A DNA stretch of 48,192 nucleotides from Candidatus Sulfotelmatobacter sp. (GCA_025928375.1 JAICJP010000001.1:1-48192); one strand, 5' to 3'. Positions 6,695 through 48,192 are shown, counted from the first letter of the stretch. A program made the numbers and translations. The notes: a model not told the origin generated them from the sequence alone.

Positions 6695-6700
6695 TCGGAC

Positions 6701-7093
6701 TCAGAGAAGCTTTCCACGTGCGAGATCATTCACCAGGGTAAGGTCGGCTTCAAGAAAGTCGAACTTGGGAAGTTCGGGCGGATCGGCCCATTGCATATCG
6801 CGGAAGATGCGATTTTCCAGCTCTCCTTTGTATTCCCGAACGATGTAGAAGCGCAGTTCCACCATGCCACCGTTGGGATACTCGTGCCGAACGCGGGCAA
6901 CCTCGTCGCCAATGGTCGCCAGGATCCCGAGTTCCTCTTCCAGTTCGCGGCGCAAGGCGTCACGGGGCTGCTCGCCTTCCTCGATCTTTCCGCCGGGGAA
7001 TTCCCACTTGAGCGGCATCGTCTGATGGCGTGTACGCTGACACACCAAAAGCTTGCCTTCTTGCAGGATGAGGCCCGCCACCACCCGCTTCAT
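6701..7093 (-). CDS. Nudix hydrolase (MutT-like)
   Basis: Nudix box GGKIEEGEQPRDALRRELEEELG. ATG at 7093 overlaps the upstream stop in ATGA. Confidence 0.85.
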   Translation of the reverse strand: MKRVVAGLILQEGKLLVCQRTRHQTMPLKWEFPGGKIEEGEQPRDALRRELEEELGILATIGDEVARVRHEYPNGGMVELRFYIVREYKGELENRIFRDMQWADPPELPKFDFLEADLTLVNDLARGKLL

Positions 7094-7575
7094 GCCTGGA
7101 AGGCTTCCATCTTCCGTCCCACAACTTGAGCGCAATATTGCACCAAAGCTTGATGCTCTGGAGTGAAGGCGGCGGGGAAGTGGCTGTCGATATCGAGTTC
7201 GCCGACGATCTTACCGCGTACGAAAACCGGAACTACGATTTCAGATTTTGTTTCCAGCGAACAGGCGAGGTAACGCGGATCTTTATTTACATCGTCCACG
7301 ACGACCGTCTGCCCGCTGGAAGCTGCTGCACCGCAGATTCCCTGGTTCAAAGGAATGCGCGTGTGCGGCGTCATGGCTCCCTCAAACGCGCCCAGCACAA
7401 GTACGGGCGGTTCCGCACCGGGTTCGAGCAGGTAGAAGCCCACCCAGTTGTACTTCAGCATGCGATCATGAAGTAGTTTCACAACGGACTGCATGAGCTC
7501 CGCAGCGCTTCGGCTGCGTTCAGCCAAGTCGGTGAGTTCGTTGCGGACTTCTTCGATTCGAGCGGCAACCGCCAT
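7090..7575 (-). CDS. GAF-domain protein, free methionine-(R)-sulfoxide reductase-like
   Basis: WVGFYLLE...ICGAAASSGQTVVVDDV...PRYLACS...SEIVVPV...GELDIDS pattern typical of fRMsr/YebR GAF proteins. Confidence 0.75.
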   Translation of the reverse strand: MAVAARIEEVRNELTDLAERSRSAAELMQSVVKLLHDRMLKYNWVGFYLLEPGAEPPVLVLGAFEGAMTPHTRIPLNQGICGAAASSGQTVVVDDVNKDPRYLACSLETKSEIVVPVFVRGKIVGELDIDSHFPAAFTPEHQALVQYCAQVVGRKMEAFQA

Positions 7576-7618
7576 GACCGAGATATTACCTCAGAAAATA
7601 CAATTATCTGCCAAAGGA

Positions 7619-8473
7619 TCAATCCTCGCGTGTAGAGACGTTGCTGGCAACGTCTCTACCTGAGACCGCGGTAATCTGCCGGATTCCTTTGGTGCGGGGA
7701 AACACTTCCGGATGAATGGTCCAAGCCAGGGCATCTAGTCCGTCGAGCAGTACCGGCGCGGGAGTATTCAGAAACTCGTCGCGAATGCAGTACACCCGCC
7801 TCCTTGCCGCAGCGGAAGTGCTTTGCCAGCCACGAGCCGCAATTATCTTTTCCAGCGGAACGCGATCTCCGGCTCCGCACCAGGCGGCCACGATGACCTC
7901 GGGATTCACATCCAGAACTTCGTTGGCTGAAATGGAGCGGCCGCATTCGCCCACGAATGAACCACCAGCGGCCTCCACCAATTCTGCCACCCACGCTTGC
8001 GAGGCGATGATGGGTTTGCCCCATTCTTCACAGAAGACCCTCGGCCTCGACTCGCCGCTCACGCGTTGCCGAACGCCATCGACCCGCGCCTGCATGCCAG
8101 CGATCACATGCTCTCCGCGACCGCCCGCACCAATGGCCCCGGCTATCGTCGCGATATCGGTATAGATGTCGGCCAGTGTCTTTGGCGCAAGACCGAGAAA
8201 GCGAATGCCTGCCTTCAGAATTTCGACCACCGCTTTTTCTTGATAGGGAACGGAGGCAATGACCAGATCGGGTTTTGCCTGCAGGATCTCCGCAGCATCC
8301 GCCGTCCATGAATCAGCGAGGATGACGGGCGCTCGCGCTGCTATTTCGGGCACGACATCCAGGCAGTACCGCGTACACGCGACTACCCGATCCAGTTCCC
8401 CAATGGCCTGAAGGGTGACGGTTGCGCTCGGCTGCAGACAGGCGATCCGCTTCGGGTGCTCCGCCAAGGCCAT
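7619..8473 (-). CDS. Periplasmic-binding-protein type 8 (BtuF/FhuD-like cobalamin or siderophore binding) homolog without an obvious signal peptide
   Basis: RIACLQPSATVTLQAIG, KPDLVIAS and PEVIVAAWCG segments are typical of Peripla_BP_2 proteins. Confidence 0.7.
   Translation of the reverse strand: MALAEHPKRIACLQPSATVTLQAIGELDRVVACTRYCLDVVPEIAARAPVILADSWTADAAEILQAKPDLVIASVPYQEKAVVEILKAGIRFLGLAPKTLADIYTDIATIAGAIGAGGRGEHVIAGMQARVDGVRQRVSGESRPRVFCEEWGKPIIASQAWVAELVEAAGGSFVGECGRSISANEVLDVNPEVIVAAWCGAGDRVPLEKIIAARGWQSTSAAARRRVYCIRDEFLNTPAPVLLDGLDALAWTIHPEVFPRTKGIRQITAVSGRDVASNVSTRED
7632..7659. repeat. Perfect 13-bp inverted repeat
   Basis: gtagagacgttgc-tg-gcaacgtctctac. It lies inside the last 14 codons of the 7619-8473 ORF. 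Confidence 0.8.
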
Positions 8474-29187: not shown

Positions 29188-29265
29188 GTCCCCGTCGTCT
29201 AGCCCGGCCTAGGACATCGCCCTTTCACGGCGGTAACACGGGTTCAAATCCCGTCGGGGACGCCA
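29188..29265 (+). tRNA. tRNA-Glu (anticodon UUC), CCA encoded
   Basis: Full cloverleaf by hand: acceptor GTCCCCG/CGGGGAC, D arm GTCT..GGAC, anticodon arm TCGCC-CTTTCAC-GGCGG, T arm ACGGG-TTCAAAT-CCCGT, discriminator G, then CCA. Confidence 0.9.
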
Positions 29266-29280
29266 AATCTAATCAACCAC

Positions 29281-29300
29281 TTAGGCCGATTTAGGCCGAT
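29281..29300. repeat. Perfect tandem 10-mer (ttaggccgat x2)
   Basis: Read directly from the sequence. It spans the integrase stop codon, 16 nt from the tRNA CCA end. Confidence 0.8.
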
Positions 29301-30544
29301 GTCCCCATTCCTCGCGGTACACTCTGCGGTACACCGAGATTTTCCCGAATCATGTGGACGACCTTGCGCTGCGCCGCCCGCTTTGTCGGTGTCAGCGCCT
29401 GCGCGTAGACGTCCAGTGTCATCTTGATCGAAGAATGGCGCAGCAACTCCTGCACTACCTTCACATCCTCGCCGTTGTCTTTGAGGAGGGTTGAGTAGGT
29501 GCGGCGGAAGGTGTGCCACCCAATACGTTTCTCGATACTCAGCTTCTTGGCCGCGGGTTGAATGTGATAACCCATGATCTTGCACAGCCAAAGTGGTTGT
29601 TTCCCGCGCTTCCTTCCCGCGCGGTTGCTGTCAGTCGCGAAGACCCAGTCGGTGGGAGCGTGATACGGCGTGTGCCGGTACCATTCAAGCAGGTCGGCTG
29701 CAATATATTCATCGATCGGGACCGGCTTCTGGGAGACCTCCGTCTTGCACCTTCCCACGTGCTGCTCGACGACTGATCGGCTCACATTGATTTGCAGGTT
29801 CAAAAAGTCGATATCCGCCCATTTCAAACCAGCCAGTTCCCCTCGCCGCAGTCCAGTGGCCATGTCCAAGAAGATCAAGACACGCTCTCGCAGACGAACC
29901 GCAGAGATCAATTTCTGCATTTCGCCGATGGTAAGGATGTCGGGAATGCTCATCCTCTTCGAACTCACCCTCACGCCTGAGCCCTTCACCGGTCCGGCGA
30001 TCGGATTTTTATCCGTGAATTCCCAGCGTATGGCGTGGTTGTAGAGAGCACTCATCGCGTTCCTGATTTTTGCTCTACTCCCACGAGCCAAACGCTCGGC
30101 TCCCTGGGTGTCCTTCTTCACGAGGTTCCTGAGCCAGTGCTCGACTGCCACGGCCTTTATATCGTTAATGTTCAGCTTGCCCCAGCGCGGCACGACCCAG
30201 CGATGGAGCAGCCACTTCAACCTGCTGCGGGTGGAATGAGCTCTGCCGGACTCTTCGTCTTCCGGTTCAGCAAGCTCGATGCGTTCGTAGTGCTCGATCA
30301 GAGCTGCGATGGTTATCGGACTGAGCTTGGTCGATGGCTCCATGTTGATTTTCATTCGCAGCCCAAGCAAAGCATCCTGCAGTTTCTTGCTCTTCAATGG
30401 GTATTCGCTAACGGGACCTATGGTTTTCTTGCAGGGTCGCAAGCTGCCATCCGGGTACCTTGAACGCCAGCGAAATTGCCAGCGTTCAATACCGTCTTTG
30501 CGGATGATGGTTGTGAGACAGCCATTCTGATATCGTGCCTGCAT
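29291..30544 (-). CDS. int: Tyrosine-type site-specific integrase (P4-like)
   Basis: ATGLRRGEL (Arg I), HTFRRTYSTLL (His-x-x-Arg), LLRHSS and TLDVYAQ (catalytic Tyr) are present. The gene is adjacent to a tRNA 3' end. Confidence 0.9.
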   Translation of the reverse strand: MQARYQNGCLTTIIRKDGIERWQFRWRSRYPDGSLRPCKKTIGPVSEYPLKSKKLQDALLGLRMKINMEPSTKLSPITIAALIEHYERIELAEPEDEESGRAHSTRSRLKWLLHRWVVPRWGKLNINDIKAVAVEHWLRNLVKKDTQGAERLARGSRAKIRNAMSALYNHAIRWEFTDKNPIAGPVKGSGVRVSSKRMSIPDILTIGEMQKLISAVRLRERVLIFLDMATGLRRGELAGLKWADIDFLNLQINVSRSVVEQHVGRCKTEVSQKPVPIDEYIAADLLEWYRHTPYHAPTDWVFATDSNRAGRKRGKQPLWLCKIMGYHIQPAAKKLSIEKRIGWHTFRRTYSTLLKDNGEDVKVVQELLRHSSIKMTLDVYAQALTPTKRAAQRKVVHMIRENLGVPQSVPRGMGTSA

Positions 30545-31024: not shown

Positions 31025-32495
<1,471 letters not shown>

Positions 32496-32499
<4 letters not shown>

Positions 32500-33422
32500 A
32501 AATTCGGACGAGTTTGGTGCATCTCACAGGGCTTTGCTTCCTGACCTACGGAGGACTGGCGCAGAACGAACCACCGCAAGCGCACATCGTCAGTCTCACT
32601 CTAGATCCGCAAATCGTTACGGTGTTGCACCTGCACCCGGGCTTCGTCAGCTCGGTGCGACTGCCGGAGGAGGTCAGCTCGGTCGTCCTGGGCGATCCTG
32701 CGGCGTTTAGAGGTGAGCATTCGGAAGCTGAGCCACGCCTAGTTTTCTTCAAACCTGCGAATCCAAAACCGGGCAAGAGCAACGCCCTCATCACCACGCG
32801 CAGCGGTCGCGAAGTTTCATTGACTTTAGTCAGCGATGGCGCTTCGGCGCACCCCGAGGCGGTCGACTACGTACTGGAATACCAGCCGCAGCGTAGCTTT
32901 CTGATTTCCTCGGTATACCCGACTGTTCTGATCGGCGATACCAAGAGTCTGGGTAGCGAAAGGCCAGCGAGTCCAAGTGACTCCCCGAAGCCTGATGGCG
33001 ACGAGCGGTGGCAGCCCCGCCAGCAATTGGCGACGCCCCTTGTCTGGCACGGCAAACAGCTGCGGGTGGCAGTCGGACGAACGGAGGAAAAAGGCTCGGA
33101 CATGACTGTCGCATTTAGCGTGGTAAATGCGTCATCGGGAACCGTTGAATTGCTGCCGCCGCAGGTGCAGCTGTCTGGGACAGCGAAGCAAAAGCACCAC
33201 AAGGCGATCAAGGCCGAACCGGTAGCGGTCAAAGACTATCGAATGACCTCGCGACGTCTGCCACCGGGAGCAACGACCGAAGGCGCAGTAGTTTTCGAGC
33301 GGCCAGCCTTCAAGGAGTCTCGGGAGCGATTGGTGCTCCAGATCGCTCAAGCAGAGGAAGTCGACCGGCCGGTTTTAGTGCCGATTGCATTTGTGGCTCC
33401 AGTGAAAGGAGCAGCGAAATGA
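32496..33422 (+). CDS. VirB9/TrbG/TraN-like outer-membrane core protein
   Basis: ATGA overlap and a signal peptide. The N-domain pattern V..V.LGDPAAF....E..LVFFKP....KSNALITT.SGREVSLTLV resembles the VirB9 N-domain. The C-domain AFSVVNASSGTVELLPP...GAVVFERP...LVLQI resembles the TraN/DUF4138-type beta domain. Confidence 0.6.
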
Positions 33423-34753
33423 TCCACCCCAACGGACACGATCCCTCAACCGCGACCATTCCCGCACCCGCTCCGAGTGAGGGCATCAAAACCCCTCCGG
33501 AGCTGCCGACCACTTACCAACAGCCCATCGATATTGCAACCAGAGCCAAACTCAGAGCTCGACAACAATTTCAGCAGAACCGGTTCGTCATCATCGGCGC
33601 GGGCGCACTTGTTGTAGCCTTGCTGATTTTTGTCGCCACGTCCATGCCGCATAAGAGTCCGACGCAAAAGACGAAGCTTGGAACAGCTGCGGTAAAAGAA
33701 GACCAGACGCAAACCGCGAATACTTCGGTAGATCGAAGCCTCTTTCCTATCACAGATTCAGGGAAACCCACAGCAAAAGAAGCGCACGAGGGATTTCTGA
33801 ACGAGAAAGACCTGGAGCGTTCTGTTACTCGGCGGTCTCACCCGAGTTCCATTCAGGCTGCGCCATCGAACGCGCCGGGAACTCTCGGATCCATACCACC
33901 TTTCGGTCCGGATCAGCAGGGATGGCAGGCGCCCCCGTATCAAGCCGGCACGGCCGCCGCTGGGGCCGACGGGAGCGATCTCGGAAAGGCTGAACGCGAT
34001 GCAATGGAGAAGTCGCCATTGGTTTACGTCCGAAACACTTCCGCCTCGAAAGCCGATTCTGGAGAAAGGCCAAGTATAGCGACGCAAGAGATCGGTCTCG
34101 GGCTAGCTACAGGCACTCGATTGCGCGCTCGCCTTGAATCCGCTGCCAGCACCGCGGTGCGTGCCCCGGTTTTGGCGGTCATCGAATACACCTACGAACG
34201 GGACGGACAAATCATTGTTCCCGCTGGGGCGAAAGCGGTGGGGCGCATACAAGAAGCGGACCGGTCGGGGTATGTCCGCGTTCAATTTGAGTCCCTGATG
34301 ATGCCGGATGGCGCAACTGTTCCAATCCAGGCGGTCGCGACCGACCTGGACCTGCGCCCGTTGAAAGGTAAAGTCGAAGGCAAAAATACGGGCAAGAACG
34401 TCCTCGTCAGATCGCTGTCGGGGATCGGGGAGGCAGGTGCGCTATTGCTGGGACGGGGCAGCCTGGGGCAGCCCTTGAGCGAGTCGGACCTAATGCGAGA
34501 GCGAGTGAGTAACAACATCGGCGAGGCCTCAGATGAGGAAATATCCCGAATGGCAATCACCTCGCGCATCGTGGTCACCGTTTCTGCCGACACTCCGATC
34601 TACGTTGTTTTGGAACAGACGACAAAAGTCGCTTCAGCGTCGGGGTCGTCAAATGCTCGCAGCTCGCAGTCGCTGAACACCAACGCAGAGGAACTTCGGC
34701 AATTGCTGCAATTGAAGCGAGAATTGAATCAGTCGAGTTCAGCACCCCAATGA
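33419..34753 (+). CDS. VirB10/TrbI-like protein
   Basis: ATGA overlap. Architecture is N-terminal cytoplasmic tail, one TM (FVIIGAGALVVALLIFVA), a Pro/Ala-rich linker, then a TrbI-type C-domain (GTRLRARLESA...VLAVIE...IIVPAGAKAVGRI...VQFESLMMPDGATVPI...LKGKVEG). Confidence 0.7.
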   Translation: MIHPNGHDPSTATIPAPAPSEGIKTPPELPTTYQQPIDIATRAKLRARQQFQQNRFVIIGAGALVVALLIFVATSMPHKSPTQKTKLGTAAVKEDQTQTANTSVDRSLFPITDSGKPTAKEAHEGFLNEKDLERSVTRRSHPSSIQAAPSNAPGTLGSIPPFGPDQQGWQAPPYQAGTAAAGADGSDLGKAERDAMEKSPLVYVRNTSASKADSGERPSIATQEIGLGLATGTRLRARLESAASTAVRAPVLAVIEYTYERDGQIIVPAGAKAVGRIQEADRSGYVRVQFESLMMPDGATVPIQAVATDLDLRPLKGKVEGKNTGKNVLVRSLSGIGEAGALLLGRGSLGQPLSESDLMRERVSNNIGEASDEEISRMAITSRIVVTVSADTPIYVVLEQTTKVASASGSSNARSSQSLNTNAEELRQLLQLKRELNQSSSAPQ

Positions 34754-34962
34754 GAGCAATGCGAAACCGCAACTGAGAACCAATGCGTTCCACAAGCCGA
34801 CTTGCACTAAGACTTAGCGGGACCTACCCTGTGCATGGTTACGCCGCGATTATTCCCAACGAAGGTCAAGTATGGAAACGACGCGTGTGGCGTGGCGTAC
34901 GGGATACAGGATGCCGCGAGCGCGAGTGATACCAGTTTGGAAGCTGGCGATCCTGGGTACCT

Positions 34963-35787
34963 CTAGTGGGACTCGGTTTGGACTTCAGGGTATTTGGCGG
35001 CAAGACCTGCGAGCTGCGATGGTGGTGCCCCTTTGAGGTAAACATCGAAGAAGGTATGGACGTAGTCGGTGGTCATAGAGAGGCCTCGACGAGGTTCCAA
35101 ATGGCCGAAGACGCGGACGGCCATAAGCGCGGAGACGACGAGACGGCTCTTCAGCAAGATTTGATCACTGAAGGTGAAGTGATTCGCGCCATGAATCGTG
35201 CCGAAGTATCCACTCGGCAAGCGCACGTAGATTGAGCCGAAATCGGCGATTACTTGTTTGGCCGCGGGATCGGCCTTCTCGCGGCTGTGATGCGCGGGCG
35301 GACCATTTGTCTCATCGTCTGTAGCCCCAATTGCTGGAGGTCTCCCCGGTCCACCCGCTGAGCTTGGCTCGAAAGTTGCAAATATCCGGTCTCCGGATGG
35401 ATTGAGCTTAAGGAATTCCGGGCTGCTTCCGAGATCTAACCGTCGCACCAAACGAAGCTCGGGAGTGCTGAAGACGGCCGCATCCTTAGTATTCTTGTTC
35501 GAGGTTATGAGATATCTCCCATCCGCGGTCACTGCCAGGCCACGCGGGGCGACATCTTGCGGCTGAACTCGCCGGACTACGCTCAACGTTTTTAAGTCGA
35601 GTACGCTAATTGCACCGTCTTCCTCGGAAACATAGGCTACGTTCGTTGGAACTCTTGAACGATAAATCCACAATACGGCGGGGACTACAACTGCCATCAG
35701 CAAAAAGATCAGCCACAGTGATCGCGCTGATGATGGAGAGGTCGAGGGCCGCATCTTCGTCGCCCACAGTCTAACGGCAAATTCCAA
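34963..35787 (-). pseudogene. Chimeric ORF: YVTN-type beta-propeller fragment fused to the C-terminal tail of an alpha/beta hydrolase (likely a deletion remnant)
   Basis: The N-terminal half has about 2.5 propeller blades (AYVSEEDGAISVLDL...PRGLAVTADGRYLITSN...). The C-terminal half (TIHGANHFTFSD...YVHTFFDVYLKG) matches hydrolase C-termini but lacks the nucleophile region. Confidence 0.4.
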
Positions 35788-38420: not shown

Positions 38421-38470
38421 GTGGTGCAATCCGTTAAGGTGAAGACCGACTGATTTGGAATCGGTTTCGA
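38421..38470 (+). repeat. Partial copy (A) of the about 265-nt repeated non-coding element (conserved core only)
   Basis: 33/44 identity to copy B and 34/45 to copy C over gtgc...ccgttaagg...ccgactgatttggaatcggttt. It retains the hairpin ACTGAT-ttgga-ATCGGT (38449-38465). Confidence 0.6.
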
Positions 38471-38697
38471 GCACCCGCACCCTGACTATGGTTACGCCGT
38501 GACCAGCTATCGCAGCTAGAGGCAGACCGCGCGGATCGAGTGCTGACAAAGTGGGCACGAGAAAAGGGAGTTGTTGGTCCACAACAGCTTCGCGTACGTC
38601 CCCGTTTCCCGCGCTCAACACGACCGACACAAATGACCAAAGCACGCTTCCCGTAGTCGCAGTCGTAGGGCGGATGTACTTAATGCTGGTCGTAATG

Positions 38698-39140
38698 TCA
38701 GGTCGTGCGGCGTGGGGCGGAGCAGTATGGTTTCCGTGCCAAATACACTGTTCGGCAGCCGGGGCGTATCAGCCGATTGTCTTTAAAAAACGGTGTCGCG
38801 TCCCATGCACGTATTCGGTCAAACCCGGCAGCGGCGAGTGTGCGGCGTATTTCGGCTGAGTTCCAGCAGACCTCCTCTACGCGTTCGTGATGCCTTTGCC
38901 AGCAGAGCGCGTGAGGGGGCTCGTCGGGATATTCACTTCCCTAGATGATTCGGCACAGCTGCTGAAAAGCCACTGCCTGTAATAGGCTCGCTCTCGTCTC
39001 GCGAACTGGGAAAGAATGAGTTCTCAAAAGCGAACTTATCGCTATCCCTCCTGAATTGTCGCCAGTAGAAATTGAAAATCTGATTCCGAAGCTGCCTAAC
39101 AGTCCGGAATTCCTCGACAGCGAATGAGGCGGGAATGTCA
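38698..39140 (-). pseudogene. Class I SAM-dependent methyltransferase remnant (5'-truncated and frameshifted)
   Basis: The open frame 38701-38940 has no start and reads ...WQRHHERVEEV.WNSAEIRRTLAAAGFDRIRAWDATPF...RTVYLARKP. The adjacent upstream segment (FNFYWRQFRRDSDKFAFENSFF) is in another frame. No SAM-binding GxGxG region is present. Confidence 0.5.
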
Positions 39141-39294
39141 ATGTTTGGGGGGCCCTCTTCCTTTTCCTTTGGCGCTTCTCGAATGCCAGATCTGTGATCC
39201 GTTTTGTGATCCGTTAGCACTACCTACTGTGGTCTTCTATCGCTTATACTGTGCCCGCCGCGTTCTCTATGTTATTGAAACTACGTTATAAGCT

Positions 39295-39320
39295 GGATTC
39301 GAATCCCACTCTCTCCGTCA
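39295..39320 (+). other. tRNA 3'-end-like fragment (Ser-type acceptor), probable integration scar
   Basis: ggaTTCGAATCCCACTCTCTCCGtca matches T-loop, T-stem 3' strand, acceptor TCTCTCC and discriminator G. No matching 5' half (GGAGAGA...) lies upstream. Confidence 0.4.
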
Positions 39321-39401
39321 AGTTATTCAATATAAAGAAGTTGCCTAGGGTCCTCAGGTTCATCATGACCCACTCTCAAGGGCGGGTTTCGTCTTTGGAA
39401 A

Positions 39402-39665
39402 GAGTGACATGCAGTTTTGCAAGGCCCAAGTGCGTGCCGTTAAAGCTAGAACTGACTGATTGGGAATCAGTTTTTCGATCAACGGAGGAATTTTGCAGAC
39501 CCAAGTCAGTGCGTCCGCCGCTGGAGCGCAGAAAAAAAAGCCACACCTACGTCGCGCCGTTTGCGGCTCATGGCTTGCAGCTTCGCTGCTCAGTTCCTAG
39601 GGCTCGGGGCAGCGGCCGACAACGCGACACTCCGCGCCAGGCGACCAGGGGTTCAGTTCACCGCG
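39402..39665 (+). repeat. Copy B of the about 265-nt repeated non-coding element (candidate structured RNA or MITE-like element)
   Basis: Collinear with 45558-45826. The first about 72 nt are about 85% identical, and the 3' ends share ggggttcagttcac. Frame-breaking indels argue against coding. Confidence 0.65.
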
Positions 39666-39771
39666 TGGCCCAGTGGCATCGATGCCTGCATTAATTCATT
39701 GGTCAAATAAGGGCAGTGATTCGTTTGTCGTAGTACAACTCGAACACTGCCCCGATCTTGAAGCTTCAGAA

Positions 39772-40255
39772 TCACTTTGTGACGTGATTTCCGGCGCTAT
39801 CGATTTCACCGATCGCGGTTGCCCCGGTACTAGCATTTCGGTAGATCATGCCCCCGGGGATTGATTGAATGCTGGTCCAGCCTGGAAAAAAGGATCCGGC
39901 TGCGTAAGCCCTGATGTTTTGCACCATTAGCATCTCCGGCTGTTCCTCCTCCTGTCCATGGCCCAAACACCTTCCCCCAACAACCGTCGCTGTCGCCTGT
40001 CGCATACAAAATCCTAGGCAGCGCATCGCTCGTGCCTTTGACCAGAGTCAAAGCATGAACATTCTGAGTTTCAAGAGCAAGGTTTGCAGGCTTCCACTCT
40101 AGTCCGTCGATCGTTCCCTCGAACTGCGGGTTAGGCCAAAGTCCGACTCCTCCACCCGTACCGATTTTTCCACGAAGAACTCCGCCGTCTGTCGCCAGCC
40201 ATACTGCAAAATCGCTCGGCGGGCAAACTGAGCTGCCTACGTATACGTGATCGAA
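39772..40255 (-). pseudogene. Possible frameshifted hypothetical gene remnant
   Basis: Two overlapping minus-strand frames carry coding-like sequence (...WLATDGGVLRGKIGTGGG...LYATGDSDG... then ...GMIYRNASTGATAIGEIDSAGNHVTK). No start codon was found after the upstream gene stop. Confidence 0.3.
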
Positions 40256-40262
40256 AGTGCAT

Positions 40263-41348
40263 CTAGATTGCAATTCCCGCCGAGCGGTAAATCTGCGTGA
40301 TGTAGCGCATGTCGCGCAGGCCTTCCTCGCCCGGGGATTTCGGCTCCAGACCATTTTGGATGCAGTTGGAGAAATGTTCCGCTTCGGCCTGGAAGTGCGA
40401 AGGGTCGCGGGCCGGGTTGAGTTCGTCCAGTTGAGTGCCGGCAAAATCCGCGCGCAGCCGCAACCCCTGATAGACAAAGGCCGAATCGACCTGAAGCCAG
40501 CCTTTGGATCCGTGCACGCGGTAGAAGCCTTCCATGTTTGCGCCGTACGTCGTGTTGCAACTGGCAACGATTCCGGAGGGAAACTTCATCGTCCAGGAAA
40601 CATTCTCCTCGACTTCGTTGAAGCGACCGTCGTGATCGATGATCGAGGCATTGGCCGAGATGTGTTCCGGCTCTTCGCTGGTCAGGTAGCGGCACGCGTT
40701 GAGCGAGTAGATTCCCACATCGAAGAGCGGCCCGCCGCCGGCGAGTTTTTTGTTCAGCCGCCATTCGCCCGGGGCAATGTTAAAACCGAAGGTGCTCTCA
40801 ATGGCCTGCACCTGGCCCAGCGCGCCTTGGCGGATGAGCTGGACCGCTTTCAGGTTGGTGGGCTCGTAGTGGCAGCGATAGGCAATCATTAGCTTGACGC
40901 GGGCCGCTTTGCAGGCTGCGATCATGGCCTCGGCATCGGCCACGCTGGTCGACATCGGCTTCTCGCAAAGCACGTGTTTGGCGGCTTTGGCCGCGCGTAT
41001 CGAGTACTCGGCGTGCATCGAATTGGGGAGCGCCACGTAGACCGCATCAATGGCCGGGTTGCGCGCGATGTCACCGAAGTTTTCGTAGTTGTAGATCGAG
41101 CTTGGCGAAACGCCGTACTCGGCCGCAATGCGCTCCGCCTTGTCGCGATGGCCACTCACCAGCCCGGCAATCAGCGAGGTGGTGGTGTTGCGCACGGCGG
41201 GCATGAAGTGTCCGGCGATGCGGCCTAGCCCGATGACGCAGTAGCCGGTTTTCTTGGTTGCGGGGGTGCTGGCCGACAGACTCGGGACAAATCGGGCGAC
41301 GAGGCCGAGCGCGGTCAGCCTGGCGAGGTCTCTACGTGTCAGATTCAT
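40263..41348 (-). CDS. Gfo/Idh/MocA-family oxidoreductase with twin-arginine signal
   Basis: ATG 41348. Tat-like MNLTRRDLARLTALGLVA is followed by Rossmann GYCVIGLGRIA and the EKP motif (LCEKPM). Confidence 0.85.
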   Translation of the reverse strand: MNLTRRDLARLTALGLVARFVPSLSASTPATKKTGYCVIGLGRIAGHFMPAVRNTTTSLIAGLVSGHRDKAERIAAEYGVSPSSIYNYENFGDIARNPAIDAVYVALPNSMHAEYSIRAAKAAKHVLCEKPMSTSVADAEAMIAACKAARVKLMIAYRCHYEPTNLKAVQLIRQGALGQVQAIESTFGFNIAPGEWRLNKKLAGGGPLFDVGIYSLNACRYLTSEEPEHISANASIIDHDGRFNEVEENVSWTMKFPSGIVASCNTTYGANMEGFYRVHGSKGWLQVDSAFVYQGLRLRADFAGTQLDELNPARDPSHFQAEAEHFSNCIQNGLEPKSPGEEGLRDMRYITQIYRSAGIAI

Positions 41349-41755
41349 GTTGAAGCGATTCTCCCAAAAGATATTTCGCGTCATTCTATAAGAGCGCAAT
41401 GAGCGTTGCGAGGGATGACGCCGCTATGGTTCAGGTGGAAACGGAGTGAGACTAGGCGCATCCTAAACTCAGAGGGCAACTCCCACTGAGAACGGGCCGA
41501 TCCCGGTTAACGGCAGGTGAGTGTAACCGCGATATTCGCCAACCTGCCCTAGTTTCTGTACAAAATTGACGATCTTTTTGCTGCGGACCGCTGCATCATA
41601 ACGCACCAATTACGAAGGGCTAGACTGGAAGCCACATGAAGGCCGAAGTGCAGTTCAACGGCTGTTCTTGCCATAGGGTTGTCACCGTTGGCGACCTCGA
41701 CACCTAGGACCGTGCTTTCTAATCGCCACTCTTCGCTGCATTCCAGCCCGTTAGG

Positions 41756-42727
41756 TCACTTGCGTTCTCTCAGAATCTCCTCGATACGAGATTTCGGAAA
41801 AGGCAGATGGTCTTCATTCTGCTTCAGCCACAGGAAATAATCCTGCTCGATAGGATCAGTCCAGCGGGCATCAATCTGTCCGGCGGTGTATTTGTCTTCT
41901 TGCAGCCGTTGGTGTCCAAAAAGATCACGGAGGTGAGTTTCTTCTGAGGACTTAACTACCTGTTCAGCGAGTTGCGGCGGAATGAAGATAACCCCACCGT
42001 TTCGTCCTAGCACCACGTCACCCGGCATGACCATCACGTGGCCGATCCTCGTCGGAGCATTGATACCGACCATGGTTGAGTTGAGCAGCTTGCCCGTCTT
42101 CAGGGATCCATAATGATGCGACGGATCGTAATAGCGAACAAAGGCAACGAAATTAGGCAATTCATCGAGACCGTTGATGTCGCGCACCGCGCCATCGTAA
42201 ACAATACCGTTGCCTGACTTGGCGTAGATCGCATTCCCGACATTGTCACCTATAGAAGGTCCACCCTCTTTCAGCCCGAAGTGGTCGCAGGTGTAGACGT
42301 CGCGCTTTTGCAGCATGTCAACTGGCCAGGCATTCATCCCGCCGATCCTATGCATCTTCTCGCCTTCTTCTTCAATCAACTTTTGTACGTCGGGCCGGCC
42401 GGGCATCCACGTTGCCGTAAGCGCTCGACCAACCAGCACTTTGCCCTCGTGAATGGTCAGCCAACCATCCTCGTACTGGTGCATGAAGCCGTTTTGCTGA
42501 AGCACCGCCCAGGCTTCTTCGAGTGTTACTGGCTTCATGCGATCCAGAATGTCGTCCGGTACTTTGGGACGGCCATCCGGAAAGCGTTCCCCATGCCAAT
42601 CCGGCGTGTACTTAAGTACATCCCCAGAAGTAAAGAACCCCTGTTGTGCGGGCGCAGTGGGCACAATCGCCGCGATAAGCACCAGATACAGAGTTGCGCA
42701 GGAAATTCGACTCAGTTCTCTCGTCAT
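41756..42727 (-). CDS. RraA-family protein (HMG/CHA-aldolase-like) with signal peptide
   Basis: ATG 42727. Signal is ISCATLYLVLIAAIVPTAPAQQ. The RraA-type core includes GDNVGNAI...GAVRD...GDVVLGRNGGVIFIP. Confidence 0.7.
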   Translation of the reverse strand: MTRELSRISCATLYLVLIAAIVPTAPAQQGFFTSGDVLKYTPDWHGERFPDGRPKVPDDILDRMKPVTLEEAWAVLQQNGFMHQYEDGWLTIHEGKVLVGRALTATWMPGRPDVQKLIEEEGEKMHRIGGMNAWPVDMLQKRDVYTCDHFGLKEGGPSIGDNVGNAIYAKSGNGIVYDGAVRDINGLDELPNFVAFVRYYDPSHHYGSLKTGKLLNSTMVGINAPTRIGHVMVMPGDVVLGRNGGVIFIPPQLAEQVVKSSEETHLRDLFGHQRLQEDKYTAGQIDARWTDPIEQDYFLWLKQNEDHLPFPKSRIEEILRERK

Positions 42728-42753
42728 GACCGCGTTCGCTCCAGTTTGTCTTC

Positions 42754-44019
42754 TCAAGCTTTGGTTGGCTCAAACCACGTCGTTCCCGGGATCTGGGACT
42801 TTTGCGCCACTTCTTCGTTCATCTCAAGCCCAATGCCCGGCTTGTCAGTGACAGTGACGTATCCCTTCTGGATGATCTCTCCTTCCTTCACCCAGTTCTT
42901 CCAAAGCTCGGGAAAGTTGATCCAGTGCCATTCGCAGACCAGGAAATTAGGAATAGAGGCGCAGACGTGTGCCGTGGACATCATGCCGATGGGCGATACG
43001 ACGCAATGGGGCGCAACCGGCACATAATATGTTTGTGCCAGATTGGCGATTTTTCGTCCTTCAGAGAGTCCGCCGGTCTTTTGAATGTCTGGCTGGATGA
43101 TATCTACCGCGCCCTTATCCAGTAGCTCGCGATACCCCCAGCGCATGTACAAGTTCTCCCCGGTAGCAATCGGCGTTGACGTCGAATGGCGAATATCCGC
43201 CATGGCATCAATGTCTTCAGGCGCAACAGGTTCTTCCAGCCAGAGCAGACGGAACGGTTCAAGTTCCTTTGCCACCCGCTTCGCCGTCCCAGCATCGTAC
43301 CGGCCATGCATGTCGCAGCAGAGTTCCATTTCCTTGGGTATGGAGTCCCGCACGTGCCTCACCCAGTTCACCATGCGGTCTACCTCGGCGTTATTGGCCG
43401 TCCAGTTTACTCGATCGAAACGGTTCGGATCGCTGGCATCATCGAGGTCGATCTTCATGGCTGTAAAGCCTTGGTTCTTAATCCAGGGAAGCTTCCGGTC
43501 AGACTCCGGGCCTAGTGGATCTTCCATGTCGGAGTCGCAATAGATACGTATTTTGTCGCGGAACTTCCCACCCAATAGTTGATAGACGGGTAGGCCCAGA
43601 GCCTTGCCTGCTAAGTCCCACAAAGCGATTTCAAGACCCGTCAATGCCGTCACATATTGCCCGCCCTGCGCACCCGCGAAGATTCCCGAGACCCGGATCC
43701 TCTCCCACAGGGCATCCACATTCAGGGGGTCCTGTCCAACCAAAAAACGACGGAACTGGTTAATCAGCGATACGGTTCCGACTGCCGCATCGGTTGATTC
43801 GCCCTGCCCGTACAACCCCTGATCGGTATAAACACGGATATGCGTTTGAAGTCCATGCACACGGACCACAGCCGTACGTACGTCAGTAATCTTCAGTTTG
43901 GGACGCTGATACGGAGTGCTTGCATCCTGGACTGCCGCAGCCAAAGTGGGGAGTGCAAAAGTACCGGCAATTGGCAACGCTGCGTTCTTGAGCATCTTCC
44001 TGCGCGTGAGTAGACTCAT
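42754..44019 (-). CDS. Enolase-superfamily (mandelate racemase/muconate lactonizing enzyme family) sugar-acid dehydratase with Tat-like signal
   Basis: N-terminal LTRRKMLKNAALPIAGTFALPTLAAA. Family segments are EIALWDLAGKALGLPVYQLLGG, CCDMHGRY, LWLEEP and ATGENL. Confidence 0.85.
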   Translation of the reverse strand: MSLLTRRKMLKNAALPIAGTFALPTLAAAVQDASTPYQRPKLKITDVRTAVVRVHGLQTHIRVYTDQGLYGQGESTDAAVGTVSLINQFRRFLVGQDPLNVDALWERIRVSGIFAGAQGGQYVTALTGLEIALWDLAGKALGLPVYQLLGGKFRDKIRIYCDSDMEDPLGPESDRKLPWIKNQGFTAMKIDLDDASDPNRFDRVNWTANNAEVDRMVNWVRHVRDSIPKEMELCCDMHGRYDAGTAKRVAKELEPFRLLWLEEPVAPEDIDAMADIRHSTSTPIATGENLYMRWGYRELLDKGAVDIIQPDIQKTGGLSEGRKIANLAQTYYVPVAPHCVVSPIGMMSTAHVCASIPNFLVCEWHWINFPELWKNWVKEGEIIQKGYVTVTDKPGIGLEMNEEVAQKSQIPGTTWFEPTKA

Positions 44020-44067
44020 TCGGCCATCCTCTTGTTCCTTTATTTGTTCATTGCAAATCGTTTGGAT

Positions 44068-45320
44068 CTACCCGTCTTGCGTTGGCGCGGCCTTGAGTTG
44101 TTGGTTCGGATTCACCATCAGCCAGGCAACCGCGCTCAGAAAACACAAACCAGCTGCCACCCAAAACGACATGTCCCATCCAAAATGCTCGGCTACAAAG
44201 GGCGTCAAGCTCGCAGTAGTGGCGCCCCCGAACTGGCCGCCCATGTTCATCAGTCCGGAAACCGATCCGGCCGAGCGGCCACCGATATCGGAACTCACCG
44301 ACCAGAATGCGCTCTGCGCAAGGCATAAAGCGCCTGCGCCGCCCGCAAGCACAACGCTGGCCAGTCGCGCATCTCCCACATGAGTCCCCAGTCCGACAAA
44401 CACCGCAGCGACGAGCGTAGCAGCACTGGCTGAATAGCAACGTCCGATGCGCTTGCCATACTTCAGCGTCAACCCATCGCTAATCAGGCCACCGAGCGAT
44501 GAGCAGATGGCGATGGCCGCAAAGGACAGCATGGCATACCCGGCGCTCGCCTTCAGATTGAGGCCACGGACCATGTTCAGATAGGTATAGAACCAGGTAA
44601 AGAAGATGTAAGCGACGTACACGAAACCAAAGTAGCTGGCAGTGACGACCCAGACATCCTTGCAGCCAAGGATGGTCCTCCAGGGCATCAACTGGCTTTC
44701 CGCGCTCTTGGTTGCGTCTGGCAAGCCAGACGAAATAAGGGAAACTTCTGCCGGACTCACCCACGGATGATGTTCCGGTTCATCGCGCGCCATCAAGAAC
44801 CAGAGCACACCAATTAGCAGCCCAATGAATGCGCAAGTCCAGAGCGACAAGCGCCAGCCGTAGTAGTAAATGATGTATGCAATCAATGGCGGCGTGACTG
44901 CCGCTCGCGTTCTTGTGAAGGGATCCACGCTGCCACCAGACGGTTGCCGGCCGGATAGACGATGGATTCCCCCACCCCCAGTAAGAAGCGAACCACCACC
45001 AGGATGGAAAGTGATCCCGCCACATTGGCTGGCGCCAGCGCCGTGAGTGCGGTGAATACTGCCCACCACGTCGTTCCCAGCAGTAAAATCTTTCTCGGCC
45101 CAAAGCGGTCCGCCAGACGCCCACTTGGCGCCTGAAAAAGCGCGTATCCTAGCACCCATGCACTGAAAACCCAGCCCAGGCGAATGTGATCCAGATGAAA
45201 CTCGCGCTCAATCGAAGGGCCGGCGATCGAGATGTTTACACGATCCAGATAAGAGACCGCGCTGATCACCAACACCAAGCCGACGAGAACCCATCGGACG
45301 TTCCTGCGAATCATGTTCAT
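44068..45320 (-). pseudogene. MFS transporter (ACS/DgoT-like sugar-acid transporter) interrupted by a frameshift near 44914
   Basis: The N-terminal part is in the frame of ORF 44883-45446 (YLDRVNISIAGP...GRLADRFGPRK...AAWIPSQER). The rest is in the frame of ORF 44068-45159 (AAVTPPLIAYIIYYYGWR...). The two parts join as one typical MFS protein only after a 1-nt correction. Confidence 0.7.
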
Positions 45321-45557
45321 GATTGAAGGCGCAGCATCGCAAACCGTGAGGCTGCGACTCGACCTTGCCCGCCGTTGTCGCATGCGGTTCGCACGGATTG
45401 ACAACGTCCTCGGCGATACGGCATGGGGCAAAGGATAACGCATCAATTAGCGGTTTCGCAGAGTGAAACTGAGAGTCCGAAGGGTCCTAAGACCGGAAAT
45501 GCATTGATCATTGCTCCCTTCCGCTCGAAGCTGCTTGATCAGCCCGCCAAGACCAAT

Positions 45558-45826
45558 GAGTGACATGCAGTTTTGCAACGCCCAGGTGCGTGCCGTTAAG
45601 GCTAAAAACCGACCGATTGGGAACCAGTTTGTCGGCCGCCGAAGGAAGAATTTCCAGACTCAGGTCGTCGCGCCCGCTTCTGGAGCGCCGAACAAAAAGC
45701 GACACCGGAGGTCGTGCCGATTGCGGTTCACGGCTTGCAGGTTCGCAGTTCAGTCTAGGCCGGACTCGGAGCAGCGGACAACGCGTCACTCCCGGGCCAG
45801 GTGAGTAGGGGTTCAGTTCACTGCGC
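45558..45826 (+). repeat. Copy C of the about 265-nt repeated non-coding element
   Basis: See copy B. The terminal pairing GAGTGAC (45558-45564) / GTCACTC (45785-45791) is perfect in this copy. Confidence 0.65.
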
Positions 45827-46281
45827 CATCACACGAACTGCACGTTGCTAATCGTCATCTCGCACTGTCGTTTTGTGACATCCTGGACCAATCGATTTCA
45901 CGAAGCAAGCTTCGACGTTGCACTTCTTACGACAGCGGCACTCATTCCTAAGAAAATGCATAAGTAGATTGACGAAGATTGGATCGAGCTCTCGCGTCGG
46001 GTTCAATTGCACCACTTCCGCGGTAACACATTGCCAGGCGCCAAGCCGGAAGCTTTATCATGCGAAGTCTTGATAGCCGCGTATCAGAATGCGTACGCGC
46101 TGTTCAGGAACGAACACTTCGATCCGAAAACGAACGTGTTCAGGCGGTTTGCGTACGCGTCTGCCATTGGAATGTTACATTTGCGCGGCGCAGCCTTGGT
46201 AAGCGATTTGCACGCTCAAATAGGTTCATCTCTGGCGTCTGGGAAACGCCCGCAAAAATTAAAAGCCTTTCAGGAGACTTC

Positions 46282-48192
46282 ATGGAGTCGCTTATTAGCC
46301 AACTCAAGCAGGTCTTCCGGCGACTTGGCCGCGCGCCACTTTTCGATGTCGGTCTCTATGCCTTCTTGTCGTTTCACATCACGGGCGGCGCTCAGCCGGA
46401 GCCGGTCCAGGGATTGCAAGTGACAGATGGCACATTGCCCATTCTCGGTGTTCGTCCTGCCCTCGGGCGCCTATTCACTAGGCGGGATGACTCGCCCGAG
46501 ACGCCGCAGACCGTCATTCTTACTTACGCTTTCTGGCAACGGCATTTTGGGTGGCGATGCTGCGGTGGTCGGCCGCACTCTGAAGTTAGATGGGGCGATG
46601 CACGAAATTATCGGCATTCTGCCGGCCGAGTTCGTGTTCATGGATCGTTCCGATGTGGATGTTGTCGTGCCAAGGCAAATTGACCGCACCAAAACGACAC
46701 TCGGCAGCTTCAGTGCCAACGGCTTGGCACGCCTGAAACCGGGAGTTACTTTGCAGCAAGCCACGGCCGATTTGACCCGCCTGGTTCCGATTGCTACGCA
46801 CAATTTTCCCCCGCCAAAAGACTTCAGCATAGCGCTGTTTGAACAAGCAAATTTCACTCCCACTCTTTAGCCGCTGAAGATTGATGTCATCGGCGACATC
46901 GGCAATGTGCTTTGGGTATTGATGGGATGCATCGCTATCGTTCTCTTGGTAGCGTGTGCGAACGTAGCTAACCTGCTGCTGGTGCGCATCGAAGGCCGCC
47001 GTCAGGAACTTGCCATTCGCGCGGCTTTGGGAGCGGATCGTAAACATATGGTCGCGGGACTGCTGCTGGAAAGTTTGATGTTGGGATGCGCGGGCAGCGC
47101 CATCGGGCTGGGCCTCGCGTACGGCGCTCTAAATTTGATTGTTGCTGCCGCGCCTACGGGATTGCCGCGCCTGCATGAGATCGGCATTGATATACCTGGG
47201 CTTCTTTTTACGGCAGGCCTGGCAGTATTCGTCAGCCTTGTCATCGGTATGATTCCGGTTCTGAAACACTCAGGTATCAAAGCCAAAACCGGTTTGCGTG
47301 AAGGCGGGCGCGGCCTCAGTCAAAGCCGAGAGCGGCATCGCACACGCAAAACGCTGGTTGTGGTCCAGGTTGCGCTGACACTGGTCTTGTTGATTTGCTC
47401 AGGGCTGATGATTCGCACCTTCCGCGCACTCACCCGCGTTTCCCCAGGATTCAGCGATCCGAATACCATCGCATCGTTCGACATCTTTATTCCCACGTCG
47501 CAGGTTCCTGACACAAGCCGGATCGATGTTTTGCGCATGCAGCAGGCCATCTTGAACCAACTCGCCGCTGTCCCCGGAGTGAGTTCAGTTGCCATTTCAT
47601 CAAGCCTGCCGATGATCCAGGACCATCCTCTTGATCCTATTTATGCCAGCGACCGCACTTATAAAGAACGCGAGCTTCCACCCTTGAGCATGGAAAAGTT
47701 CGTATCGCCGGGTTTCTTTAAGACCATGGGCATCCCGTTGATCGCGGGACGAGACATGACCTGGCAGGAAGAGCTTGAGAAACGTCCAGTCGTCATTGTC
47801 TCGGAAAATCTTGCTCGCAAGTACTGGGGCTCGTCGGCCGCTGCTATCGGGAAACTGGTACACGTCGGCTTGAACGATTTCTGGCACGAAGTCATTGGGG
47901 TGGCTGGTGATGTGTACGATAACGGCGTAAATCAGGATCCGCCCACTGCGGTTTATTGGGGGCTGTTCCAAGACAATTTCGCCACGCAAAAAGAACTCGT
48001 GCGCCGGTATGTACACTATGTAATTCGCACGCCGCGCGCCGGGTCTGCGTCATTCTTCAGCGATAGCGAACGTGCAGTGTGGTCAGTGAATCATGATCTG
48101 CCGCTTGCCTATAACAAGACGATCGGTGGGCTGTACACCAAATCGATGGCGCGAACTTCGTTCACTCTGGTTCTGCTGTCGGTTGCAGGCGC
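46282..48192 (+). pseudogene. ADOP/MacB-like (FtsX-domain) permease with multiple lesions; 3' end outside window
   Basis: AGGAG precedes ATG 46282 (MESLISQLKQVFRRLGRAP). TM1 appears deleted, there is a +1 shift in the GGG run near 46550, and an in-frame TAG at 46868-46870. The frame then stays open to the window end, encoding MacB_PCD/FtsX-type sequence (CANVANLLLVRIEGRRQELAIRAALGA). Confidence 0.65.

Follow-up and report, generated by a model that had tools for sequence, protein, structure and literature searches.

Tandem insertion at tRNA attachment sites is a common and well understood route by which bacteria gain accessory genes. CIMEs are elements that have lost their integration and transfer genes, have kept attL and attR and undergo site-specific accretion, as seen among the ICESt1/ICESt3-related elements of Streptococcus thermophilus (PMC5704250). 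Genomic islands in tRNA and tmRNA genes have been catalogued by Islander (PMC4383910), and the tycheposon arrays of Prochlorococcus consist of tandem, tRNA-anchored elements together with partial tRNAs and fragmented integrases (10.1101/2020.12.28.424599).

We have analysed a stretch of 48,192 nt from Candidatus Sulfotelmatobacter sp., called the window in the following, in which a sequence of about 265 nt occurs twice. The two repeats appear to be the tRNA-proximal (left) ends of two decayed, CIME-like integrative elements that have accreted at a tRNA-Ser(GGA) attachment site, a reading to which we give a probability of roughly 85%. The feature is of an ordinary kind, namely relics of mobile-element ends at an integration hot spot of the tRNA type, and comes from a phylum that has been little studied. 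Our literature searches turned up no account of the family in Acidobacteriota, and to that extent it is undescribed.

Like CIMEs, the units of this family are flanked by att sites, lack integration and transfer genes, and have an apparent conjugative or mobilizable origin, to which relics of relaxase and integrase genes point. At the 3' end of the target gene they form tandem rows, with copies of the att core between them and varied accessory cargo. Both attL and attR are kept in 28 units, and gene loss and descent from an ICE or IME are indicated by the cargo ORFs, which are free of recombinases, and by the MOBF relaxase relic at the left end. Unlike the CIMEs described so far, these islets belong to Acidobacteriota and have tRNA-Ser(GGA) as their target, the left end is unusually long, up to about 0.8 kb with the relaxase relic, and an array may contain up to three or more units, whose small cargoes are very diverse. 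With the Islander islands and the tycheposons they share insertion into the 3' end of a tRNA gene, here too probably by a tyrosine integrase; the tRNA is regenerated while a displaced 3' fragment is found at the far end. Successive insertions displace older elements in the known arrays and would have done so here; integrase fragments and partial tRNAs lie scattered through the islands, and the cargo is niche-adaptive. Tycheposons, however, usually carry their own recombinase and a replication module, whereas nearly all units here are recombinase-free, share a long conserved pair of ends and the MOBF relaxase relic, and show no replication or packaging genes.

The preliminary description of this DNA, made from the sequence of the window, had reported two collinear copies on the same strand and had proposed a novel structured RNA or a MITE as candidates. 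The copies, here called B and C, are real: a self-BLASTN of the window aligned 39399-39665 with 45555-45825 on the same strand at 79% identity over 276 columns (E 1.1e-58), and a MAFFT alignment agrees with this. The identity at the 3' end that had been pointed out corresponds to a block of 14 identical nt, and at the 5' end there is another of 21 nt. A third copy, A, which is weaker and partial, had not been mentioned before (Table 1), nor had a 3' fragment of tRNA-Ser(GGA) that lies some 75 nt ahead of copy B and is flanked by conserved stretches on either side. Each of the copies B and C is 85-88% identical to copies in other genomes as compared to 79% to each other, which implies that they arrived separately and are not the result of a local duplication; judged from these identities they are members of different sublineages.

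Members of the family were recruited with one exact 19-mer, GTGACATGCAGTTTTGCAA, so that the sampling favours copies keeping that block. It matched 15 Acidobacteriota loci in GTDB species representatives, apart from one chance match, and 60 metagenome contigs, and the family thus comprises 75 further Acidobacteriota loci beyond the window; the MAGs concerned are of the Sulfotelmatobacter, Acidiferrales and Acidobacteriaceae types. Single loci are given L numbers below. The homology runs upstream of the boundary first proposed in all copies but copy C.

Table 1. Element ends, attachment-site parts and cargo genes in the window, with the evidence for each.
Feature	Position	Strand	Description and basis
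Copy A	38423..38666	+	Third copy of the element end, degenerate and with an internal deletion; about nt 30-88 of module 1 fused straight to the later part of the relaxase-gene relic (38469-38630). nhmmer, 38423-38521; BLASTN to L016, L013, L019 and L064, 38423-38666; relic matched in tblastn by helicase fragments and TrwC-like relaxases at 47-59% identity (E down to 9e-16)
Alpha arm	39165..39292	+	Conserved sequence that closes the preceding integrative element on its right; candidate integrase arm (P arm)
Alpha tandem repeat GTGATCCGTT	39194-39203 and 39206-39215	+	
Attachment-site core	39299..39320	+	22-nt 3' fragment of tRNA-Ser(GGA), TCGAATCCCACTCTCTCCGtCA, without the 5' part of the tRNA; the sole tRNA-Ser core in the window. 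Aligns to the 3' end of intact tRNA-Ser(GGA) genes in L014, L016, L024 and L025
Spacer	39321..39396	+	AAGTTATTCAA.ATAAA.AAGTTGC...CCCACTCTCA...CGTCTTTGG. Multiple alignments and conservation profile
Copy B (module 1)	39397..39666	+	About 245 nt of non-coding element-end sequence, then, from about nt 247 of module 1, the first ~5 codons of the relaxase relic (GDR-VQFTA); family homology ends at 39666. nhmmer with the full-length model, E 2e-91; 85-88% identical to L064, L080, L034 and L043
Cargo between copies B and C	40263..45446	-	Pfam and gene calls on identical contigs
Gfo/Idh/MocA oxidoreductase	40263-41399	-	
RraA-like protein	41756-42757	-	
Enolase-superfamily MR_MLE protein	42754-44019	-	
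MFS transporter, split by a frameshift	44068-45159 and 44883-45446	-	
Copy C	45555..45870	+	Module 1 (45555-45827) plus about 45 nt of further relaxase relic (VQFTAPS..., 45811-45861); relic of ~20 codons, to 45870. tblastn with helicase fragments, 45811-45861, 82% identity over 17 aa
Cargo of the copy-C unit	46282..48192	+	Frameshifted ADOP/MacB-type permease gene running past the window end. Pfam MacB_PCD and gene calls

The element has a regular position relative to the tRNA. A conserved spacer of about 75 nt, present in every core-bearing member, separates it from what lies upstream, which is an intact tRNA-Ser(GGA) gene or no more than the final 22 nt of one, TCGAATCCCACTCTCTCCGCCA. Of 83 informative copies, 74 have this gene or its fragment about 75 nt upstream, in a fixed orientation. 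All loci were searched by nhmmer with profile models of the element end and of alpha, a piece of about 130 nt found left of the core fragment in copy B and 26 other copies, and the left flanks of 89 element ends were tallied. The element followed an intact tRNA-Ser(GGA) in 12 cases, alpha and core in 27 and other sequence and core in 35, while nine ends were coreless and six lay at a contig edge. A single orientation was seen for 100 of 100 element matches and for 51 of 52 alpha matches. The most conserved part of alpha is GTGATCCGTT-(N2-3)-GTGATCCGTT (39194-39215 in the window), a repeat block that is at least 97% conserved in 37 distinct copies.

These parts repeat in a regular layout. Each unit begins with the 22-nt tRNA core, the spacer and module 1, that is the 265-nt repeat, continues in long versions with the relaxase relic, and then holds 0.5-8 kb of cargo followed by alpha with its GTGATCCGTT repeats and the next 22-nt core, the units being arranged head to tail behind an intact tRNA-Ser(GGA). 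Core-bounded units with the element at the left and alpha and core at the right numbered 28 and measured 0.5-8.2 kb, 11 of them falling between 3.09 and 3.34 kb. Tandem arrays with two to three element ends were found at 11 loci (e.g. L029, L058, L039 and L032); L029, for instance, reads tRNA-Ser, element, alpha, core-element, alpha, core-element, that is the tRNA plus three junctions. L020 is a classical attL/attR case, in which an intact tRNA is followed by a remnant of 1.7 kb that has arm repeats of its own, then by a core and the element, the cores lying at 2563 and 4293. The direct repeat that marks a tRNA island, an intact tRNA with a displaced 3' fragment, is present at L020, L024 (three cores), L029, L077 and L087, and in the window it is represented by the displaced fragment 39299-39320. 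At L024, L029 and L084 the element next to the tRNA is followed about 3 kb further on by alpha and core. Since the element thus lies between the tRNA and an alpha-core, and is repeated, it is part of the inserted units and not the native flank of the tRNA.

The window shows part of such an array, in the order remnant A, alpha-core-spacer-copy B, a putative sugar-acid operon, a deletion, copy C, an ADOP permease gene and an alpha-core outside the window. The genes between copies B and C probably serve sugar-acid catabolism, and their enolase-family protein is also encoded in MAG GCA_025936095.1, on a contig of 156 kb, and on many metagenome contigs; the gene is present in more than 170 assembly blocks. 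Copy C has no alpha arm, core or spacer of its own, nhmmer matches only model positions 76-242, and its homology begins abruptly at 45555 in every relative (BLASTN, 15 loci). This points to a deletion joint at which the next alpha, core and spacer were removed. From 45555 to 48192 the window is collinear, at 82-88% identity, with L025 (tRNA-Ser, spacer, element, ADOP permease), where the element and the ADOP gene lie directly behind an intact tRNA-Ser. The alpha and core that belong to the copy-C unit were found about 0.9 kb past the window end, at 4823-4944 of L001, a locus that is 99.96% identical to the window and reaches 5.8 kb further at the right end. Unit B therefore keeps only its left att site, and unit C only its right one, just outside the window. 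ARAGORN found no tRNA-Ser gene in the window; neither an intact tRNA-Ser(GGA) nor an integrase of the tRNA-Ser type lies within it, and the head of its array is not seen. The one integrase gene of the window (29291-30544) adjoins a tRNA-Glu, and no second tRNA-Glu 3' fragment delimiting the integrase island at 29.2 kb is present in the window.

The 3' end of the repeat connects it to conjugative elements. Translated, the invariant stretch GGGGTTCAGTTCAC that closes the repeat reads VQFT, and it opens the relic of a TrwC-like relaxase gene of which the 3' end is left. Where the copies are longest (at L064 and L034, among others), module 1 continues as an open frame, GVQFTAPSKEL..HLDHGYAVTSHSSQGQT..AYVSVSRA... 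This frame matches TIGR02768 (TraA_Ti) at positions 623-746 of 751 (E 6e-20) and also Pfam UvrD_C_2. The full-length relatives are relaxases of about 890-930 aa with a TrwC-type N-terminus, and the relic corresponds to residues ~767-930, or the last ~160 codons of the gene in the long versions. ORFs of this relic measure 110-226 aa and have 2,246 homologs. DNA homology to more intact genes (L090 and L091) begins at GGCGA..GTTCAGTTCAC, the same stretch that had been noted as the identical 3' end of the two copies. The view that the repeat is non-coding thus stands as regards the frame-breaking indels, which are real, and has to be given up for the last ~20 nt, which are relic coding sequence of the relaxase/helicase gene. 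The first 245 nt of module 1 matched neither relaxase nor integrase in sequence searches. The idea that they are a decayed upstream part of the relaxase gene gave chance-level results, both by tblastn with relatives of 220-930 aa and by local DNA alignment to intact genes (z about 0), and the idea of a decayed 3' end of an integrase gene on the minus strand gave nothing by tblastn and a six-frame HMM search, apart from an unrelated internal integrase relic downstream of the truncated copy at L081.

Relics of integrase genes, or frameshifted ones, adjoin the tRNA-Ser core at L077, L087, L088 and L081. At L077 the order is tRNA-Ser, core, arm GTGATCCGCAGCGCGATCCATTAAG, the relic of an integrase C-terminus, alpha, core and element; the arm carries GTGATCCGCAG and GCGATCCATTAAG, and the relic is a C-terminal piece of 117 aa on the opposite strand. 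The motif of this integrase-side arm can also be written GTGATCCG/GCGATCCATTAAG. The same arm and a frameshifted integrase gene lie by a core fragment at L087, 6.7 kb from an intact tRNA-Ser, and are followed after the integrase by AbiE, helicase and DUF932 genes, and at L088 an integrase fragment is fused to core and alpha. No intact cognate integrase was recovered. The best 120 homologs of the L077 relic are all at most 204 aa, none of them intact, and no member among the loci examined combines precisely this left end with a complete and functional integrase gene.

A comparison of nine distinct long copies showed mean pairwise identities of 0.87-0.94 for module 1, 0.80-0.90 for the relaxase relic and 0.66-0.79 for the spacer, so module 1 is conserved barely above the relic that adjoins it. 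The copies are cut internally at many points, with clusters at nt 88-94 and 121-125 and others at 56-76, 105-113, 139-194, 240 and 270. This level of conservation and the varied truncation fit decaying mobile DNA that has been shared recently, and not a constrained functional element. Only the spacer and the first 60-90 nt of module 1 are present in all copies, and their size would be that expected of an integrase arm beside the core. Within module 1 the candidate arm-type site GTGCGTGCCGTTAAG matches the alpha repeats only loosely, and the strict motif G[TC]GATCC[GA] has 76 matches in alpha arms as compared to 8 in element ends. Because the strict motif is rare in the element ends, a role of module 1 as an arm or a set of binding sites is no more than an inference.

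The conservation at the nucleotide level despite frame-breaking indels is what makes a structured RNA conceivable, whether an sRNA, a riboswitch-like leader or a tmRNA-like molecule transcribed from the 265-nt element, and a small peptide is not a substitute for it. The 19-codon ORF MSDMQFCKAQVRAVKAKTD has some changes that look synonymous, but a frameshift or truncation breaks it in 7 of 17 copies, and it was rejected as a peptide gene. At the gathering threshold Rfam gave only tRNA-Glu in the window, at E <= 10 it gave one spurious match of 19.5 bits in 39000-46300, outside the element, and on 15 related loci only tRNAs; the glycine riboswitch, tmRNA, Acido-1, Acido-Lenti-1, HEARO and ykkC models, suggested earlier as the ones to compare with, and all other families were without a match to the element. 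Compared to shuffled sequences the folding energies gave z-scores of +1.18 and -0.45 on the plus strand and +0.77 and +1.17 on the minus strand, which is no excess of stability. Covariation was assessed on 19 distinct full-length copies. RNAalifold gave -36 kcal/mol with a covariation term of +1.61 kcal/mol, a penalty, and five of 63 predicted pairs showed compensatory change, one double change each. The SCI of 0.365 lies about 2 sd above column shuffles (0.28 +/- 0.04), which could speak for structure, but it is the same on both strands, and it falls to 0.04 and 0.08 for the part of the left end that is common to all 62 distinct copies. The helix that had been proposed to enclose the element, GAGTGAC with G.CACTC, places A opposite a base other than T in 16 of the 19 copies. 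The apparent T-A to C-G swap traces back to one event, in copy B, and the two helices named earlier contain one double change in 228 cells, a number equalled in 217 of 500 shuffles. The promoter scan showed no promoter-like site in the element and terminator-like sites at chance level. With the many internal cut points, the flanking genes varying in identity and strand, and a conservation on par with that of the adjoining pseudogene relic, we regard a novel RNA as very improbable. The preliminary description had itself named an IS terminal region, or missing transcription and covariation among more homologs, as evidence against an RNA; the repeat is the terminal region of a mobile element in the reading given here, and no covariation was seen in the larger set. 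Even less can be said for a cis-regulatory leader, a 5' UTR or riboswitch, acting on the minus strand for the operons to the left, MFS/enolase for copy C and an M28 peptidase for copy B. Copy C does lie about 110-380 nt upstream of the MFS-MR_MLE-RraA-GFO operon on that strand, and copy B lies upstream of minus-strand ORFs; in the 75 related loci, however, the same side is taken up by the tRNA, the alpha arm or unrelated genes, with no conserved operon, and the minus strand gave neither a structural signal nor an Rfam match. We consider a leader function extremely unlikely.

A MITE, or another repeat mobilised by a transposase and inserted twice in the region, would explain the many copies across genomes with different flanking genes, and would need no transposase in cis; the element is also, like a MITE, short, non-coding, multi-copy and without a transposase. 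It differs from one in having no terminal inverted repeats, as an inverted-repeat search of both copies showed, and no short target duplicated in the flanks of B and C. The tRNA-Ser core fixes its position and, in all 100 matches, its orientation; the left boundary is always core and spacer while the right one is variable, the copies that abut the core (74 of 83) are not dispersed, and the element includes the remains of a relaxase gene. An insertion of this sort is therefore hardly credible, and what survives of the MITE proposal is that the repeat was left by non-autonomous mobile DNA. The possibility that the element is native to the chromosome, being the stretch that originally followed tRNA-Ser(GGA) (the B' flank of attB), and was displaced by islands and duplicated through an imprecisely excised one, has somewhat more in its favour. 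At 12 loci an intact tRNA-Ser is directly followed by spacer and element, the alpha-core-element junctions resemble ordinary attR sites, the order tRNA, small island, core, element of L020 fits, and copy B is nearer to copies in other genomes than to copy C. A native flank would, however, be expected once, at the distal end, and 11 loci have two to three element ends per array; at L024, L029 and L084 the tRNA-adjacent element sits inside a core-bounded unit, the arrays end with alpha-core and then unrelated sequence, and the fusion to a conjugative relaxase relic marks the element as mobile-element DNA. We find this origin improbable.

Another alternative, unlikely as it is, takes the arrays not as debris but as a working, integron-like gene-shuffling system in abundant soil Acidobacteriota. 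Modules of 3-8 kb, such as those with ADOP permeases, GNAT/AraC genes, aldo-keto reductases and sugar-acid operons, would be bounded by the same composite site of about 0.4-1 kb (alpha arm, core, spacer and module 1), and their excision, rearrangement and exchange would be the work, in trans, of a tyrosine integrase specific for tRNA-Ser whose gene lies elsewhere. The spacer and module 1 would then be a functional recombination arm, or possibly an oriT left next to the relaxase relic. The arrays do resemble integron cassettes in being made of small or promoterless-looking modules, with a repeated sequence like a recombination site between them and no internal recombinase. Unlike integrons, they have neither attC-type imperfect palindromes nor an IntI/attI/Pc platform at the head of the array, where the tRNA is preceded by response-regulator genes and not by integrase genes; the junction is a tRNA 3' core with lambda-like arms, and the modules, 3-8 kb in size, are multi-gene and lie in either orientation.

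Accreted, decayed CIME-like elements remain the best explanation of the locus. It is likely that an ICE- or IME-like ancestor with a tyrosine integrase and a MOBF relaxase inserted at the tRNA, and that internal deletions then took out the integrase and transfer genes and left att-flanked, CIME-like islets. Later arrivals would have entered at the regenerated core and displaced the older islets outward, so that the array would have been built by successive events of site-specific recombination into the 3' end of the tRNA-Ser(GGA) gene. The 265-nt sequence itself would do nothing autonomous; at most its first 60-90 nt may, together with the spacer, have belonged to an integrase-binding arm of attL/attP, and the rest would be hitchhiking relic DNA.

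The cargo is without integrase or transfer genes. Among the families matched by the 73 ORFs of the bounded units are AraC-type regulators, GNAT acetyltransferases, aldo-keto reductases, RibD_C, TPR proteins, kinases, dienelactone hydrolases and MacB/ADOP permeases; no recombinase family was found among the families with at least two members, and a local integrase HMM gave no match. Between L013 and L024, which come from MAGs of different GTDB species, the GNAT/AraC cargo is 94-97% identical, as compared to left ends that are only 85% identical and of differing deletion types, and this likeness may be taken as an indirect sign of horizontal movement.

What had appeared as a conserved, indel-ridden, two-copy non-coding element is in all probability debris of mobile-element ends and not a new RNA, which removes a false lead. 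It also illustrates that conservation at the nucleotide level across MAGs can stem from recent horizontal spread instead of purifying selection. The loci collected here document a widespread family of integrase-less islets anchored at tRNA-Ser(GGA) in Acidobacteriota, undescribed within the literature searched. The islets carry accessory transport, regulatory and catabolic genes, and they offer a handle on how soil bacteria that are hard to culture gain their flexible genes.

The tyrosine integrase beside the tRNA-Glu(TTC) gene of the window is related to the integrase relics associated with tRNA-Ser (phmmer E 1.4e-9), and a tandem TTAGGCCGAT repeat is found close to it. Downstream of the tRNA-Glu(TTC) gene comes the motif TCAACCACTT(A)GGC, which also comes after the tRNA in the tRNA-Ser elements at L077 and L087, two related loci with a decayed integrase beside the tRNA-Ser core. 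A second tRNA-Glu fragment, as the far end of the tRNA-Glu integrase island, was not found within the window. The genes lying between this integrase and the tRNA-Ser array may be the remains of a conjugative element.

Features of the window and of two related loci
Feature	Location	Remarks
tRNA-Glu(TTC) gene and 417-aa tyrosine integrase	window 29188-30544	integrase on the strand opposite to the tRNA, 26 nt beyond it
Tandem TTAGGCCGAT repeat	window ~29283-29302	
AAA ATPase	within window 31067-35787	right of the tRNA-Glu integrase
DUF2381-like protein	within window 31067-35787	right of the tRNA-Glu integrase
TrbI/VirB10-like protein	within window 31067-35787	match below Pfam cut-off
Beta-propeller-like ORF, 274 aa	within window 31067-35787	right of the tRNA-Glu integrase
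GCAGTGATTCGTTTGTCGTAGTAC	window 39712-39740	~50 nt past the end of copy B
MFS transporter, two overlapping ORFs	window 44068-45446	minus strand; first in the sugar-acid operon
ADOP/MacB-type permease, in pieces	window 46060-48192; L001 (99.96% identical to the window) 5473-7960	after copy C
IS110-family transposase (DEDD_Tnp_IS110 + Transposase_20)	L019 205-1494 (oriented coordinates)	~1 kb upstream of the core

Among the 28 core-bounded units, in which element and cargo are closed by the alpha arm and the 22-nt tRNA-Ser core, eleven have closely similar sizes, 3.09-3.34 kb (L024, L021, L030, L029, L075, L042, L032, L026, L084, L018, and L047). The cargo differs among those examined: L024 carries GNAT/AraC, L021 an ADOP permease, L018 an aldo-keto reductase and AraC, and L026 a regulator. 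Past copy B, the left end of one decayed integrative element, the stretch GCAGTGATTCGTTTGTCGTAGTAC is similar to GTGATCCGTTTGTGATCCGTTAG, with which the alpha arm begins, and may represent another degenerate att arm. The IS110-family transposase in the related locus L019 has no relation to the tRNA-Ser units, and shows that other mobile DNA also lands in the tRNA-Ser hot spot.

Some of the cargo genes are broken. The MFS transporter is split into 145 aa and 272 or 286 aa. Since the same split is called in all 10 independent contigs examined, it is no assembly error but a fixed frameshift or pseudogene. The permease that follows copy C is in pieces in related contigs as well (147 aa and 499-541 aa), and the homologous gene of L025 is intact, at 825 aa.

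Fragments of the mobility genes were also found in metagenome proteins. The best 120 of 2,246 homologs of the relaxase relic, a TrwC-like 3' gene remnant (P0121-P0240), were all 110-226 aa, and the best 120 of 1,672 homologs of the integrase relic (P0001-P0120) were all 204 aa or shorter. In soil Acidobacteria, judged by these best matches, C-terminal truncated fragments of these two genes are extremely common.
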